Positions 10,424 through 57,927 of a stretch of 64,000 nt of DNA are shown piece after piece. Numbering within the stretch: the first letter of the stretch is position 1; each line of letters starts with the position of its first letter. Made by a program: the position numbers and the translations under genes. The stretch covers positions 97,030,001-97,094,000 of the forward strand of contig OX597815.1 of NCBI GenBank assembly GCA_951406725.2. The letters run 5' to 3'. Under the pieces are notes generated by a model, which was not told the DNA's origin, ran no database searches, and saw only the letters and a program-made list of their open reading frames with translations. The stretch comes from Octopus vulgaris. Lineage: Eukaryota.

Positions 10424-11624
10424 TGTTTACGACAGTTGACTTATGGAAAAGATATGTTGAACTTTATTGCCAAAAGTTAATAAGGGCTTGCGTGAGAAAG
10501 GGAAGACATGGAACAATTAACTAAAACGGAAGAAAAAGTAACATTCTCTCTCCCATCTCCTTCATTTTGTTCTTTATATAAGTACACACATACACACACA
10601 CACATACGCACGCACACACATATACTAACACAACACTTGGAAATAAATAATGTATGAGTGTATAATATATATACATATACAAATATTTGTTCATCATCTC
10701 TTTTGGTTTCTAAATTAAGGCCCCTTTCTCTTGCTCCATAACCAGTGAGAGGCTCTTGTAACTGTCTCCAATTCTGCAAGCAACTCTCCATCTTACTTAT
10801 CTTCTTATTCCAATTTCTGTAAGCGATCACCCACAGCCAGTATAGACTAGGAATAGACAAACTTGCTTCCTATCTGCTTGCAACCTGCAGAAACTATGGT
10901 GCCTGGCACGTTTCAATTTAAAGGTCTAATCAGATCCTATATATTAAGCCTAGTATTAACATTAAAATGTATCAAATGACAAAAAAGGCAAATAAAACAC
11001 GCAACATTTTTCCACTTCTTCTCGCAGGTACCACTATCCATAAAATTTAAAAGCTAAATATTGCTTCCCTGTTTAGCGGCTGTAGCGAATCCAATATTAC
11101 TTTGTTTGAAACGAAACCACAGTTCAATTTGAAAATGTTATCCTTTTATTTAATACCAAAACTTTTTGCTCTACACATAAAGTTTATATTATCTTCCTAT
11201 TACAGGTTTAGTATTACCTGATGCTACTTATATTGACATATAAGCATATAATGCTGTCACCTAATATTACTTATATTTCATATGAATAAACTCATATTCC
11301 GAAACACATATTCCGAAATAGATTCGCTGTTATGTTCTAGGTCATCGGGCCTCATCGAGAGTTATTGGTGAGAGCTTAAACATTCTAAATATGTTAGTCA
11401 TAAGAAATGTTATACTATAATTGCATAGCAGTGATGCTATTGATGATGAGAGACAAAATGTCCATGCTTAGTTACGTTTCGATTACTTTAACCAATATAA
11501 GTATTTAAATTGGTCTACCTGAGTAAATGTTCTACAGATGAATGATATATCAGAACAATATTAATCATATCCAACCCAATGAAATTATCACTGACACCTT
11601 GCTAATATTGATTTCAACTTTTCG

Positions 11625-18943: not shown

Positions 18944-19319
18944 CTACAAATGTTTAGAAAAATAGGCCATATCTTGAACAAGCGTATTGAGATTTTACTA
19001 AGGGAGTATATAGAATGCATTATTACCAACAAACACTCTGAAGGAATATAACTAAACTAGGTTTAACACAATATATCGAAACAGTGCGTTTCACCTTATA
19101 TCTGGTAGAACCTCAATCCCCTTTGTGGTCTTTCTACATTTTTATTGAAGCCCGTCTCATGAAAAATATTTTTATCGTATTAAATTAAGAGTATCTTATA
19201 GACTTTGTTTCTGCTACATAATGTTGAAGCAATCTCTTATTCATTTCATATGGAGATAGATTATTTCCCAAACTATTAACTACCAATTTACAGATATATC
19301 TACAATAGTCATTACTAAT

Positions 19320-19725
19320 AATTATTTCTGTTATAGTCATAAGACTTAAATTTTCTGGGAAGGGAGGTAATCAATCATATCGACCCTGGTACGTGACCAT
19401 AGTTATGATTGCTGTTGTCTAGACATTTGCAAAATTCTGCTAGTAATAGCAGCCAAATCACCAGCAGTTAAGAAGAAAAAAAAGGACATCATGGAACACT
19501 GTTAAAGCTGATATACAAAATGCTCCATTGGTGATACCTGAAACGCCTATGATCAGAGGTGTACTAAGACCGAACTAGCTTGTCTTTCAACAACAATTAT
19601 ATCTCGAAAGGATGAAAGGCAATGTCGACCAAGGCGGAATTTGAACACAGAATGTTAAGACCGACGAAATACCGCTAAGCATTTCGCCTCGCGTGCTAAA
19701 GATTCTGCCAGCTCTCCGTCCTTAG
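19320..19725 (-). mobile_element. SINE family B with a 14-bp TSD and a nested ~200-bp insert
   Basis: TSD TAGTCATTACTAAT at 19306-19319 and 19726-19739; SINE head 19600-19722; 19397-19597 is a copy of the 17128-17322 repeat. Confidence 0.85.
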
Positions 19726-19919
19726 TAGTCATTACTAATTATAATGTATTTGTTTCCTATTCTTTAAACATTATAAATGCCATTCCTACCCATTGAAAGA
19801 ATACTTAACTCGTGGTAAGAGATGCAAGATTCAGTAGCAAGTAGTCCAACCACCAGCACCATCACCATCACCACCATCTCTACCACTTATACAATACTGT
19901 TTGAAATGGTTTCAAATTA

Positions 19920-20102
19920 TGGTACAAACAAGAATTTTAGGAGAGAGGTAAAGTTGATTTACTTCGACCACACTACTTCAATGGACGAAAGAACGAAAGG
20001 CAAAGTCGACCTTGCAGTAATTTAAACTCTAAACGTGAGACCAGAAGGAATTCCGGCATTCATGCAATCCGGCTTGGTAACGATTCTGTCAACTCACCGC
20101 CT
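19920..20102 (-). mobile_element. SINE family B, degenerate
   Basis: GAAAGAACGAAAGGCAAAGTCGACCTTGCAGTAATTTAAACTC...AACGATTCTGTCAACTCACCGCC. Confidence 0.7.
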
Positions 20103-20369
20103 TCATTCTGTCTTAAATGAAAACAAAAGAACATCATAAGATGATTTTGTCAGACAGACCTGTATGCAATCAGGATGTTCAAAGCTGTAATTACTTAATG
20201 AAGATGCCTCCCTCAGCCAGAAGTGATCAGTGGATAATCAGTACAATCAAGAGATATCTAACACATTTGTTTTAAAAAAAAGCTCTACACGCAGCGTTTT
20301 CATACTGTTGCTCTCACCAATATTTTGTTCATTTGTATATTTACCTATATATTTACCTTAATTTGTAAA

Positions 20370-20443
20370 TTCTAACGTCATATTTTTCTTTCGTATTTTT
20401 CAGGTAAGTCTTCACAAAATTTGAAAATCTCAGTCTGGTAAGA
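20370..20443 (+). other. candidate recursive splice site (ratchet point) with a 34-nt RS-exon
   Basis: Branch point TTCTAAC (20370-20376), pyrimidine tract, TTTCAG|GTAAGT junction at 20403/20404, second donor CTG|GTAAGA at 20437/20438; no AG dinucleotide for ~105 nt upstream. Confidence 0.6.
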
Positions 20444-20829
20444 TCTATCATTATCTAATGCACGGGTAGCTATAATTTTCCTTTATTCAATAACATTCAA
20501 ACAATTTATCAGTAACCTCAAACAACAAGTTCGAAATTATATCAAGAAAAAGAAAAAAAGGCTTTTTGAAATTCATTAATACAGAGCTGCAAAGAGATTT
20601 TCGCACAAGAGAAACTCCTTTAAAACATAAACACAGAATGAGAGTGTTGTGGAGAAAAAAAGGCCGGGCAAGGATACGTATAAACGTGAAAAATAAACAG
20701 ATTATTCAACTTTTAGTGACTTTGGTTCAGATGCACTTCACTAAAATTTGTACTCGTATCCAGATGATCAAACGTTCTTTTAGTACTTCTGCTTGGAAAT
20801 CTGAGTAGAAATGTATGTGATATATATTA

Positions 20830-20980
20830 TATAGTGAGGTAAGAAGCCTGCATAACATCCACATAGTTATGGTTTCAGTCTAACATCATTGCACATCGGG
20901 TAAATGTCTTCTATGGCCTCAGGCCGACCGACCCATTGCCTGTAGAGTTGGTAGACTGAAACTGAAATAAGCCCGTATTA
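20830..20980 (+). mobile_element. SINE family A, 5' half
   Basis: GGTAAGAAGCCTGC...CCACATAGTT...GGCCTCAGGCCGACC...GGTAGACTGAAACTGAAATAAGCCCGTA. Confidence 0.75.
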
Positions 20981-20986
20981 TATATA

Positions 20987-21270
20987 CAGGGTGCGGTGAA
21001 TGAAATGCTGTCTAAATTACGCAAAAATTAATATAAAACTGACGGGATTTTAACAAATATATTTGCCAAAATTACATAAAAATATCTTGATATATTCCAT
21101 AAAATCAACATTAGCTTCAACCACTCCGTAATTTTTTAAAATATGTTGAATAAGTTGAACTGTTCTTTCATGTTTGAAGATCATGAATTCATCTGACCAA
21201 AACGGTTTTCTTTGCAATGCTATAATGTTCTCATTGACCAATTAAAGAGTTGTTAGAAACGGCCATATTG
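20987..21270 (-). mobile_element. internally deleted Tc1/mariner-superfamily remnant
   Basis: TA|CAGGGTG terminus; minus-strand ORF contains FWSDE and a C-terminal GVVEANVDFME resembling the AVxEAxGxxxE end of Tc1-like transposases. Confidence 0.4.
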
Positions 21271-21996
21271 AATTGATATCTGTACGCCTTTATTACTTAT
21301 ATTTTATATACCTTTTATATTCCTGAAACAGCTATAAGACTAACTTTTTCTTTATAAATGACTTAGAAATTTGATACTACTTCGGCTTTGTTTTCCCATT
21401 TCATTTAACATATACAAGCTCGCACACTACTCACTTTAGACTGCTCACTCATATTATTATCCAACCAGGAGATTATCAGCGGTCCTTCCACAGCACTTAC
21501 ATAGTCTTACCTGCCTTTTAGGTATTCTGGATAAGAAAAACTTGACTTGTGAGTAGAGGTATCATGAATATCATTCAAACCGCAAGAAAAAAGAAGTGTT
21601 CACATTTACTCTATATTATTCTATCATCCACCATGTCCTTTCGTTTCTAAGACAAAAGCATGCAATTACGGTATGTCATCCAACACTGATTTGTTAGTTA
21701 TTTCTAACGGCGACAGATGAGATTATTCGTTTGCTCAGAATCCATGTTGCAATTTCACAAGCTACTACCCATTTTGATGTAACTGAGACACGGGCACGGT
21801 TACGAATCCCGACAGACAGACATGTGCGTGCACGCGCACACATATATATATACAGATCTATGCTCAAAATTACATACTCACACACGCACACATATCTATA
21901 TGTATATCTATATCTATATAGATAGACATACAGACAAACAGACAGATCGATAGATAGATATAGATATAAATATCTGCGTGTATGCGTTTGTACGTT

Positions 21997-22031
<35 letters not shown>

Positions 22032-24833: not shown

Positions 24834-26087
24834 CGAGGGGTGTTTATTAAAGATTTCCTTTTACACACTTCTCAAAGACAGGGATAAATGCAGCTTGGCA
24901 TACTTATTCATTCTTCTCTACATAAACACCACCAACGGTGACTGCTTTCTCTTGTCGCTTTATGCAGCTTTGAAGACCTCGTTTGTAGAGCCTAGACTTT
25001 ACCTCAACATCATCCAAAAAATGCTTCCCCTTCACAAAGGACTTCATATTTGGAAAGAGGTGGACGTCAGATCGTGCGAGGTTGGGAGAATAAGGGTGTG
25101 ATGTAGGATTTCATAGCCGCAGGACAGTGCTTTCATCCGGGTAACATGCGCACTGTGAATTGGAGCGTAGTCTTGGAGGACGCGAACTCCTTTGGCCATC
25201 ATGCCACGCCTCTCTGCTTTCAAGGCGTCCAAACATTTTTCAGCACAAAAAGCATAATATGCCTTGTTATTTGTGGTGCTCCTTGTGAGAAAATCTATCA
25301 CTACTCCGCGCTGGTCCCAAAAGACTGTGATCATTACCTTGCTTGCTGAGGGTTGGACACGAGCCTTCTTTGGAAGTGGTGAGTTATCATACTTCCATTG
25401 TTTCGATTGGAATTTAGTCTCAGGATCATAGTGATGGACCCATGTTGGTTCTTGTGTTATAAGTCGGCCGAAAAATTCCTCGTCGTTTTCTTGTCACATT
25501 GCCAAAAGAGACTGGGAATAATTGCCTCGTTCCTGCTTCTGAAAAGGTGTAAGCATCCGCGGAATCGATCGAGCAGACAATTTCCGTATGAGTAAATAGT
25601 CGTGAACGATTTTTTTTCCATTAACCCTACACTTGCCGTCAATTCTTTGGCCAATTGCCAAAGAGTTATGCAGCGATCCTCCAAAATAGCGGCTCCCACT
25701 TCATGGATAGGTTAGCCATAAATGGCGGAATGTGGTCGTCCAAGAAGAGAAACAGTTTCCTGCGATGTCCGACTACATTTGAACTAATAATGCCAGTGGT
25801 TGACTACATTGTAAGATGGTGCATCGTCAACATAAACTTCTTTCATCTCATCGAAAATCTCTTCTGGTGTATAACCTGTTAAGTTTACGAACCCGATCTC
25901 TGATCTGCATTCAACTGCCACAATTATAACAACTTAGTCCATTTCAGAAGCAGTAAAAGACAAACGCATACTACTGGAAAGCTGAAATTAACAATGTGTC
26001 ATGTAGAGAAATGTATGATTGTACCTGTACAAGTTTCGTATCTTACAATAAACGTGAGTTAGGGGAAATCTTTAAGGAATACCTCTC

Positions 26088-26249: not shown

Positions 26250-26369
26250 GGCTATTTGAAAACGTTATGAAAAAATACCGTTAAAAATGAAGGGAAATTA
26301 CTCTGTTATAACTCTTATACTAAGAGTTATACTATAACTCTTATAACTGTTATACTAAGTCCGAAGTAT

Positions 26370-27374
26370 AACTTCGGACTTAGTATAACTATAGACACTA
26401 ACCTGACGGTTGTCAATTTCTTAGACGTTTCCTTAGATCTTAATAATAATATTTATAAGCCTTATAGGAAGCCCAATGATAGACTAAGTTATATTAATGT
26501 AGGTTCATGCCATCCCCCTATAGTATTCAAAAATTTAGTTAAAAATATTAGTAAGAGGATTTCTAGCCTCTCATCTAATGAGGACATCTTCAATAGCGTT
26601 GCCCCAGTTTATAATAAAGCTTTAAAAGATAGTGGTTTTAGCGAAAAAATAAAATATACACCTATCACCAGCCCAACAATAAGGAAAAGGAATAATAGAA
26701 ATAGGAAGGTCATCTGGTTTACGCCCCCTTACTCACCCGAGGTGGCCTTCAATATAGGTAAATATTTCCTAGCACTGATAGATAGACATTTTCCAGTTAA
26801 CCATGCTTATAGGAAACTCTTCAATAGACACAATTTAAAAATTAGTTTTAGTTCAACTACCAATTTTAAAAACATAATCAATCATAACATACAAAAAACA
26901 CAAGAAGAAAACAGCTGTTCATGCAGGAATAAAGAATTGTGCCCGCTAAATGGAGCTTGCATGTCCAAGACCATCATATATGAAGCTACCGTAAACTCTA
27001 TAACCACTAAAGACACCGTTTCGACGAAGAAATACGTGGGCCTGACAGAGGGTAATTTCAAGGCCAGGTTCAATAACCACACTTTGAGCTTTAGGCACTG
27101 GAACAAAAGAAAAGCGACACAATTATCCAATCATATTTGGTCTTTAAGAGATAAAGGTGGCGATTATAACATACAATGGAAGATTTTGGCCAGATGTAAG
27201 CCCTATACTAACGGCAGCGGAAGGTGCGGTTTATGCGACATGGGGAGATGGCTTATCTGGAAAAGAAGCTTAGACCCTACCCCATGTCTAAATACAAGGA
27301 CAGAGCTTTTCGGATCATGCCCACATGTGACTAAATTTCTGTTACGTTTTTGGTCCCCTAAAGAAAACGGATAG
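26370..27374 (+). CDS. PLE reverse transcriptase C-terminus/thumb plus GIY-YIG endonuclease (partial, ~334 uninterrupted codons)
   Basis: Frame is open upstream of the listed ORF: FGLSITIDTNLTVVNFLDVSLDL...YKPYRKPND...SCHPP...RKVIWFTPPYS...IIYEATV...YVGLTEGNFKARFNNH...CGLC...LNTRTEL..SCPH; no start codon because the element is truncated. Confidence 0.9.
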   Translation, partial: NFGLSITIDTNLTVVNFLDVSLDLNNNIYKPYRKPNDRLSYINVGSCHPPIVFKNLVKNISKRISSLSSNEDIFNSVAPVYNKALKDSGFSEKIKYTPITSPTIRKRNNRNRKVIWFTPPYSPEVAFNIGKYFLALIDRHFPVNHAYRKLFNRHNLKISFSSTTNFKNIINHNIQKTQEENSCSCRNKELCPLNGACMSKTIIYEATVNSITTKDTVSTKKYVGLTEGNFKARFNNHTLSFRHWNKRKATQLSNHIWSLRDKGGDYNIQWKILARCKPYTNGSGRCGLCDMGRWLIWKRSLDPTPCLNTRTELFGSCPHVTKFLLRFWSPKENG

Positions 27375-30987: not shown

Positions 30988-33350
<2,363 letters not shown>

Positions 33351-56701: not shown

Positions 56702-57927
56702 CAGGGGTTGGAAAAAATAATGGGAACACCTAGACTCATTGCATCATAATGTCGAAATATCTATAAAATTGTCAAATGCTCATTTATTATTACGTCTTTG
56801 ATTTATTATTAGTGTTGCTTAATATGTTCTGCTAAAATTGCTGTTTCTGTATAGATATCCTCAGAAAATGTTAATCAAAATTCATTAAAATGACAGACCT
56901 ATCGGACTTTCAAAGAGGTCAAATTGTTGGTTTTTGTATGGCAGGCGCTAGCGTAACTAAAACAGACGAAAGGTTTGGTGTATCAAAAAGTGCTGTCTCG
57001 AAAAGAATGATAACCTTTGAGAAAGAGGGAAAACCTCCTCATCGAAACAAAACCCCTGAAAAAACAAAACATTCTGATAGGAACCGTCAGACTCTTACGC
57101 AAATTGCACAGCTCCCAAAATTACTGCAGAGCTTAATGACCACATCGAGAACCCAGTTTCCACAAAAAACTGTACGCTGGGAGCTACACAAAGCCCGGTT
57201 TCACAGGAGGGCTGCAATCAGAAAACCACAACTTTCAAAAACAAACGTTGCAAAGCGTTTACAGAATTGTTCCGTAGAGCAGTGGAAAAATGTTATTTTC
57301 TCGGACGAGTCATCCTTTACCTTATTTCCGATCACCGGTCGAGTATATGTGTAAAGACAGCCAAAAGAAGCATTTGACCCAGGCTGTCTTCTTCCAACTG
57401 TTAAATATGGAGGAGGATCTCTGTCGATCTGCTGGAGCTATATTTTGGAAATCCACCGGCCCAATGCTTTCCGTTCATGGCAGAGTTAATAGTCAAAATT
57501 TAAGCATTTTATCTGATCACATTCATCCTATGGTTGCGGAATTGTTTCAGGGGAGGGGCTCACACTTTCAGGATGATAATGCACCAATTCATACAGCTAA
57601 AGTTATTATTGAATGACACGAGGAACATTCTAGTGAAGTTGAACATATTATCTGGTCACCACACTCTCGAGTTCTCAAATTGAGTATTCATGATGCATTT
57701 TAGGAAAAAAACAAGGAATCGATATCATCTGCTATCATCACTACAAGTACTAGAGACTGTTTTAGCTGAAGAATGGACACAAATTCCTTTGGAAACAATT
57801 CAAAATGTGTAAGGGTCCATACGGCGTAGAATTCAAGCTGTAATTACTGCCAAAGATGGTCCTACCCGTATTAATATAAATTTGTTTGAAATTTTAATGA
57901 TTTTTCCATTATTTTGTCAAACTCCTG
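56702..57927 (+). mobile_element. Tc1-family DNA transposon, ~1.23 kb, full length but decayed
   Basis: TIRs CAGGGGTTGGAAAAAATAATGG / CCATTATTTTGTCAAACTCCTG, flanked by TA. Confidence 0.95.
56890..57872 (+). pseudogene. Tc1 transposase (DD34E), frameshifted
   Basis: MTDLSDFQRGQIVG (paired-like HTH), WKNVIFSDESSF, FQDDNAPIHTAK, degenerate WPPxSP, C-terminal RRIQAVITAKDGPT. Confidence 0.9.

Follow-up and report, generated by a model that had tools for sequence, protein, structure and literature searches.

A probable recursive splice site within a 226-kb intron of an octopus gene for a kainate-type glutamate receptor

The window that we analyzed, 64,000 nucleotides of Octopus vulgaris DNA (C2:97,030,001-97,094,000), hosts at positions 20370-20443 what is probably a recursive splice site, i.e., a ratchet point with a cryptic RS-exon, to which the first coding exon of a kainate-type glutamate receptor gene is likely spliced (we put the probability of this reading at roughly 0.8). 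Use of the site as an acceptor is well supported, and we infer that it is re-used as a donor. Since assembled contigs point to a joining of the upstream exon to a fused acceptor and donor, the 226-kb intron that surrounds the site is likely removed in two steps.

A fused acceptor and donor in a giant intron

All elements of the site lie on the + strand. A putative branch point, TTCTAAC (20370-20376), places its branch A at 20375, i.e., at -28 from 20403, and is followed by a polypyrimidine tract at 20383-20401 (17 of the 20 letters at -23 to -4 are pyrimidines). The tract leads to the AG of the 3' splice site (20402-20403), and the putative ratchet-point donor GTAAGT (20404-20409) abuts this AG directly. 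A second donor, CTG|GTAAGA (20438-20443), lies 34 nt 3' of the ratchet point and delimits a predicted cryptic RS-exon of 34 nt (20404-20437). The first-pass annotation had described the branch point, the tract, AG|GTAAGT, and the donor at +34, and inspection of the sequence found all of them present as claimed; the zone without AG, which it gave as ~105 nt, measures 107 nt (20295-20401, with the preceding AG at 20293-20294). This arrangement, in which a strong 3' splice site (branch point, tract, and YAG) directly abuts a 5' splice site, is the sequence criterion of a recursive site.

Scored with rough splice matrices that are untrained on this genome, the site is the top donor among 3700 GT and acceptor no. 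2 among 3213 AG on the + strand of the window. Its joint acceptor/donor score was equalled, with both strands considered, in 1 of 600 Markov-simulated 64-kb windows (0/200 at order 1, 1/200 at order 4, and 0/200 at order 6), and the joint motif exceeds chance expectation. Very strong acceptor-like sequences were also observed at 11028 and 10175 (+); there is no strong donor at or near either of them, and they are probable decoys. An Rfam search of 19000-22000 returned no family.

The site had been described as lying in sequence that does not look repetitive, which stands for the site itself but not for its surroundings. Indeed, 20150-20650 has a single match (itself) in the 2.80-Gb genome in a search that skips very common words, and a comparison of 20251-20520 with the other loci gave only short matches of 27-48 nt to the pyrimidine tract or the motif, whereas high-copy repeats stand within about 200-500 bases on both sides. 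Judging from the depth of cover, very high-copy short repeats occupy 19600-19720, 19890-20190, and 20880-21170. The window also carries open reading frame remnants at 25044-25493 (-), 56875-57616 (+), 26271-27374 (+), and 31597-33217 (-), whose look suggests transposases of the mariner/Tc1 type, a retroelement-like frame of 367 aa, and pieces of LINE-like elements.

The window lies wholly inside one + strand intron of 225,955 nt (C2:96,927,816-97,153,770), which separates the first coding exon of a gene for a kainate-type ionotropic glutamate receptor from the second, and the site divides this intron into 122,588 nt upstream and 103,367 nt downstream (122.6 and 103.4 kb). An exon scan of 200 kb on either side of the window ranked two + strand exons highest, at C2:97,153,771 and 97,252,809. 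The second of these is 100% identical to the Octopus sinensis protein 'glutamate receptor ionotropic, kainate 2-like' (E 7e-51) and matches Pfam ANF_receptor; the protein cluster of the host includes members from O. bimaculoides, O. vulgaris, and Argonauta. More specifically, the first 50 residues of the receptor protein map at 98% to C2:96,927,668-815 (the first coding exon) and the rest to exons up to C2:97,730,906, so that the coding exons extend over about 803 kb (C2:96,927,668-97,730,906), with every gene match on the + strand. This protein-to-genome mapping bore out the earlier proposal of a very long + strand intron. The kainate-type receptor gene likewise agrees with the neuronal type of host that had been anticipated, and the exon identity to an Octopus protein supports an octopus origin of the DNA, then called probably cephalopod. 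The site is on the sense strand of the long intron and apart from known exons (it is absent from 10 aligned proteins).

An acceptor-like signal ahead of the first coding exon suggests that further non-coding exons may lie upstream. The database O. vulgaris model P0008 starts with an 8-residue first exon at C2:97,148,016 (L049) that has a poor donor, and it is without the signal-peptide exon located 220 kb upstream of that exon; this start is likely a gene-model error due to the giant intron. We also noted two weaker AG|GT candidates on the sense strand, one upstream in the same 226-kb intron (C2:97,010,243, L025) and one in the next intron, of 98.9 kb (C2:97,166,320, L051).

RNA contigs at the site and the splicing they point to

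Logan contigs are non-branching paths in a k=31 graph, as described in the accessible part of PMC12424806. Matches were listed for 24 runs, none of which is recorded as RNA (which tells neither for nor against RNA), and four runs were compared over 19000-21950; the RNA status of three runs (X5, X13, and X20) is the tool's guess (probable RNA), and the contigs carry no strand, expression level, or transcript-end information. One contig of X5 (study P4), 650 nt long, matches 20403-21025 with 1 differing letter and carries 27 unmatched letters at its 5' end. The corresponding contig of X13 (study P9) is 100 nt long; its match to 20403-20480 is exact, and 22 unmatched letters precede it at the 5' end. 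Both matches thus open at 20403, the last base of the 3' splice site.

Downstream of the site, the X5 contigs cover 20403-21025 and 21049-21714 (depths of 8.7 and 8.0, depth being a poor measure), and those of X13 cover 20403-20480, 20482-20605, 20655-20938, and 21246-21500. A contig of X20, a run with a different organism label, covers 20492-20751, and none is listed for it across the junction. The contig-covered stretch (20403-21714) runs past both donors and past an AATAAA at 20692. The two junction contigs extend across the second donor, as expected of an intermediate, and are unbroken at 20437/38 (rare variants are dropped from contigs). All three runs are without cover at 19000-19395 and 20188-20385 and have cover after 20403, a pattern that would suit a saw-tooth step but that we do not count as evidence, holes in contigs proving nothing by themselves; contig depth, which cannot show level, is flat over the 3 kb around the site. 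In addition, the DNA run X10 gives short cover near 20287-20484, and the contigs of organism D yield no clear cover of the site.

Ending in CG, the first coding exon shares exactly 1 end base with the sequence that precedes the site, which is why a contig joining the two would match from 20403. The first bases of the site have 7 letters in common with the start of the first exon's own intron and 2 in common with the start of exon 2. In a k=31 simulation, an exon-to-site product that branches against the mature mRNA leaves 27 unmatched letters and one that branches against the unspliced pre-mRNA leaves 22, while a DNA-only graph has no break at the site. Among the 12,595 upstream + strand GT sites in 220 kb, a single one fits both 1 and 7 shared bases, and it is the donor of the first coding exon. 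Because the observed lengths of 27 and 22 match the k=31 model and only this donor fits both overlaps, the junction from an upstream exon donor to 20404 that the first-pass annotation had called for is supported, by contig geometry in two studies and by the simulation (the letters were unseen). The evidence for splicing of the first coding exon to 20404 is therefore strong but indirect, its partner being identified by lengths and not by letters. Another candidate first exon, at C2:96,859,193, was rejected: its 2 shared end bases predict a match from 20402, and the receptor protein maps elsewhere.

If the site works as in flies and humans, a tiny exon would be defined by U2, acting at the branch point and tract, together with U1 at the donor 34 nt downstream. 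The exon ending at C2:96,927,815 would then be joined to window 20404, with removal of 122,588 nt. The resulting junction reads TCG|GTAAGTC and matches the exon's own donor over 7 intron bases, so splicing to the site would rebuild the donor of the upstream exon. This rebuilt donor would in turn be spliced to C2:97,153,771, with removal of 103,367 nt, and the mRNA would hold no trace of the site. On a predicted side path, use of the donor at 20438 would include the 34 nt and lead to a frameshift and NMD. Exon definition, re-splicing, and NMD are carried over here from the fly/human model as presented in the accessible parts of PMC8605326, PMC5126111, and PMC6110457.

In-silico translation of the exon 1-exon 2 join yields the database protein. 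Adding the 34-nt exon shifts the frame, as had been expected, and brings a stop a few codons into exon 2, and read-through from the site without donor use reaches a TAA at 20439-20441. The rebuilt donor scores 9.4, the same as the exon's own, and the RS-exon donor 9.7 on a rough untrained matrix; since the two are about equal, donor strength would not ensure that the 34-nt exon is skipped. The donor at the site had been called perfect, which describes CAG|GTAAGT as it stands in the genome but not the donor after the first step, whose exon side becomes TCG and whose score is that 9.4. The 34-nt segment is absent from all 10 aligned proteins, in which it could not be in frame. An 11-residue difference between isoforms X1 and X2 was ruled out as the RS-exon, for it sits near residue 408.

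Similar sites across the octopus genome

A search for 14 pyrimidines-N-YAG followed by GTAAGT returned 125 sites in the genome, compared with 87 when the tract is followed by GTAAHT (H = A/C/T), a ratio of 1.44. The reversed patterns gave 29 versus 113 (OR 5.6, p 3e-13). A purine-tract control, which also controls for ordinary donors, gave 68 with GTAAGT and 185 with GTAAHT, and its reversed form gave 120 versus 189, a ratio of 0.63, against which the enrichment is 2.3-fold. This last ratio indicates that backgrounds vary with repeats, and therefore the fold enrichment is approximate. With that reading, the pyrimidine-tract-YAG|GTAAGT motif is enriched about 4-6-fold over controls, as the proposed scan for YnCAG|GTRAGT-type sites had anticipated. 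The excess amounts to about 90-100 sites under the 14Y-N-YAG|GTAAGT pattern, a pattern that misses the 20403 site.

The matches also cluster by strand. Among the first 100 of the 125 matches there are 14 neighboring pairs separated by 300 kb or less, where about 1.5 would be expected, and in every one of them both members share a strand. The control set of 87 has 2 pairs at that distance, one same-strand and one opposite; at 500 kb, the same 100 matches give 15 same-strand pairs and 1 opposite. A YTRAY branch motif was found at 21 of the first 30 loci versus 6 of 23 control tracts, and a second donor within 80 nt at 10 of these 30 loci versus 0 of 23. The AG-free zone of the test loci is no longer than that of the control tracts (median 35 versus 43 nt). 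When CTAAY was required, we obtained 22 matches, compared with 5 for the reversed pattern, 10 for a scrambled branch motif (TCAAY), and 29 for the donor-broken control, in which 10 of the 29 are copies of one repeat (Fisher p 0.027, or 0.005 when copies are counted once). The sequence TTTTTTCAGGTAAGT by itself gives a weak signal (22 versus 12). A looser branch-point pattern (197 versus 33 reversed) was set aside, as about 70 of the 100 matches listed are, by eye, one interspersed repeat. From their sequence, the roughly one hundred look-alike sites in excess under the 14Y-N-YAG|GTAAGT pattern suggest that the octopus may use recursive splicing in many giant genes.

In 1.66 Mb examined, all nine strong sites share their strand with the coding exon that comes next and 0 are antisense, and each has a downstream donor 34-105 nt away. 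These regions were chosen around known matches (seven of the nine sites were known beforehand and two were found blind), and other genes may lie between the sites and their next coding exons. Five of the strong ratchet-like sites form a series on the + strand of C13, at 4,468,681, 4,550,882, 4,648,757, 4,685,588, and 4,805,417 (L147, L156, L165, L169, and L181). They are 37-120 kb apart, all continue as GTAAGTAC, and each has a second donor 45-55 nt downstream. The series precedes a + strand DUF7044 exon at 4,856,824, and we regard it as the best test case for a multi-step intron.

Three further ratchet-like sites on the + strand of C21 (9,708,748, 9,860,030, and 10,016,646; L251, L227, and L202), two of them found blind, precede exon 2 (10,153,633) of a paralogous kainate-type receptor, with successive gaps of 151, 157, and 137 kb. 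This exon is homologous to exon 2 of the host gene, and a protein bearing the name of O. vulgaris matches it with 100% identity, which agrees with an O. vulgaris origin of the DNA. A search of the 550 kb upstream of exon 2 did not find the paralogue's first coding exon; the database protein P0028 begins inside this exon 2, and thus the true first exon seems unannotated.

Same-strand pairs or series were also observed at C3:9.64/9.75, C5:10.73/11.00, C6:97.12/97.26, C8:15.10/15.24, C8:50.88/51.02, C9:104.96/105.23, C13:57.42/57.57/57.80, C18:39.83/39.97, and C20:68.16/68.36 (Mb). A separate group of loci (L064-L093, e.g., C1:213,382,295) belongs to an interspersed repeat with a branch-like motif, a pyrimidine tract, and TAG|GTAAGT. 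Its 15 copies that were compared are 75-82% alike in alignments that extend >1 kb on either side, and no copy was found in the examined C2 and C21 regions. Such a repeat could be a seed of new ratchet points or could carry the element's own splice signal.

Collectively, the same kind of stepwise removal is likely at work in many giant introns of the octopus, with spacings of about 40-275 kb. We lean, by a small measure, toward a wider proposal in which recursive splicing is a genome-wide octopus device: there would be hundreds of ratchet points with steps of roughly 40-275 kb, several times the fly size; the points would have persisted at one and the same intron across glutamate receptor paralogues; and near-balanced RS-exon donors would double as NMD switches for neuronal genes.

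Alternative readings and relation to known systems

Taken alone, the exon-to-site product also fits a poison exon, a cryptic last exon, or a dead-end splice. A regulated poison cassette exon, in which the acceptor is mostly paired with the donor at 20438, NMD follows, and GTAAGT is not re-used, is partly compatible with recursive splicing as its side path; as the full account we regard it as unlikely. It would agree with the frameshift and early stop caused by 34-nt inclusion, with the similar scores of the two donors after the first step, and with a product joining exon 1 to the site and retaining the downstream intron, which is also an intermediate of cassette inclusion. It leaves unexplained, however, why a consensus donor lies exactly at the exon start, as well as the genome-wide +5G excess and the spaced same-strand series, and the X5 and X13 contigs have no break at 20437/38, though contigs drop rare variants. 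Marginally less probable is an alternative last exon, in which exon 1 is spliced to 20404 and intronic polyadenylation attenuates the receptor gene. The contigs do extend at least 1.3 kb beyond the site, an in-frame stop lies at 20439-41, and AATAAA (20692) and ATTAAA (21241) follow; yet the X5 contigs run past both poly(A) signals, there would be no call for a donor at the first base of a last exon or for another one 34 nt further along, and the site series in other genes would be left without explanation.

Splicing to a strong chance acceptor, as a dead end or noise with no part in making mRNA, appears very unlikely to us. Giant introns hold strong decoy acceptors such as that at 11028, one repeat family spreads a similar motif, and, according to the accessible part of Pai et al. 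(PMC6110457), unproductive events are not told apart by approaches based on junctions or saw-tooth patterns. Against this, the joint motif is rare by chance, single copy, and central in the intron, and an assembled contig is present in two studies. The notion that the unmatched letters reflect a DNA variant or an assembly artefact (an insertion or chimera at 20403) is hardly credible: the RNA status of X5 and X13 is guessed and their letters were unseen, but the two studies break at the same base, which is the one predicted from the exon end, their two different lengths each fit the splice model, and a DNA-only graph is without a break. Moreover, 92-100% of the words across the site are present in four further runs, of which two may have supplied the assembly. 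A recursive splice site, with the first coding exon joined to it, remains our preferred reading.

At the RNA level, recursive splicing is supported in flies and vertebrates, and no mollusc report was found in the literature that we could search (openly licensed PMC/bioRxiv texts). The octopus has an independently evolved large brain and very long neuronal genes, among them the present one. Given a junction-supported site and a catalogue of candidates, the handling of giant introns becomes testable from existing total-RNA data, be it in the fly way (many ratchets) or in the vertebrate way (few), as do the questions of what sets step length and whether RS-exons regulate receptor levels. If true, the genome-wide device would bring ratcheting of the fly type to the third great branch of the bilaterians and to its largest brains. 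The case also serves as a warning that gene models can miss first exons ahead of giant introns.

The comparisons that follow rest on the accessible portions of the cited sources. Fly zero-nucleotide ratchet points with cryptic RS-exons are described for Ubx, kuz, Bx, and luna (Duff et al., 10.1101/006163; Joseph and Lai, PMC8605326), with recursive branch points at -36 to -21 (10.1101/006163). As in Drosophila, the octopus site has a juxtaposed AG|GT in a long intron, an exon donor joined to an unannotated intronic acceptor, a branch point near -30, and a cryptic exon that is short and out of frame (34 nt here and 34-105 nt at the nine strong octopus sites, as against ~50 nt in flies), and several such sites may occur in series within one gene. 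The octopus site agrees with Duff et al. (10.1101/006163) in the sequence, the position, and the first junction that they require of a recursive site. It differs in scale and phylum, this being a mollusc: fly recursive introns are 11-133 kb and their segments 2.6-63.6 kb with a mean of 18 kb (10.1101/006163), whereas the octopus intron is 226 kb, its segments are 123 and 103 kb, and same-strand octopus sites are spaced 37-275 kb. In addition, saw-tooth patterns, lariats, and cross-species conservation are established for Drosophila, whereas the octopus site is known from sequence, position, and contig geometry.

Vertebrate brain RS-sites and RS-exons (Sibley et al. 2015, as relayed by PMC5126111 and PMC8605326) resemble the octopus site in having a giant intron, a nervous-system gene, and an RS-exon with a premature stop (PMC5126111). 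The vertebrate outcome is set by competition between two donors (PMC5126111), and two donors are likewise present at the octopus site. Fully cryptic sites are nonetheless very few in vertebrates, with no clear excess of the motif in long introns (a ratio of 1.5 or less; PMC2773006) and nine fully suppressed sites in long introns (cited in PMC8605326), unlike the octopus with its excess of about 90-100 sites under one tight pattern. Shepard et al. (2009) predicted RP-sites and reported a motif excess in insects and sea urchin (PMC2773006), and the octopus resembles those invertebrates in that fused acceptor/donor motifs are in excess in long introns, with a bias in strand. Their analysis, in the portion accessible to us, comprised 13 species, none a mollusc, and motif counts only (PMC2773006), whereas the octopus site has junction evidence. 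The octopus site is thus likely a Drosophila-type ratchet point with an RS-exon, whose segments are far longer than those of the fly.
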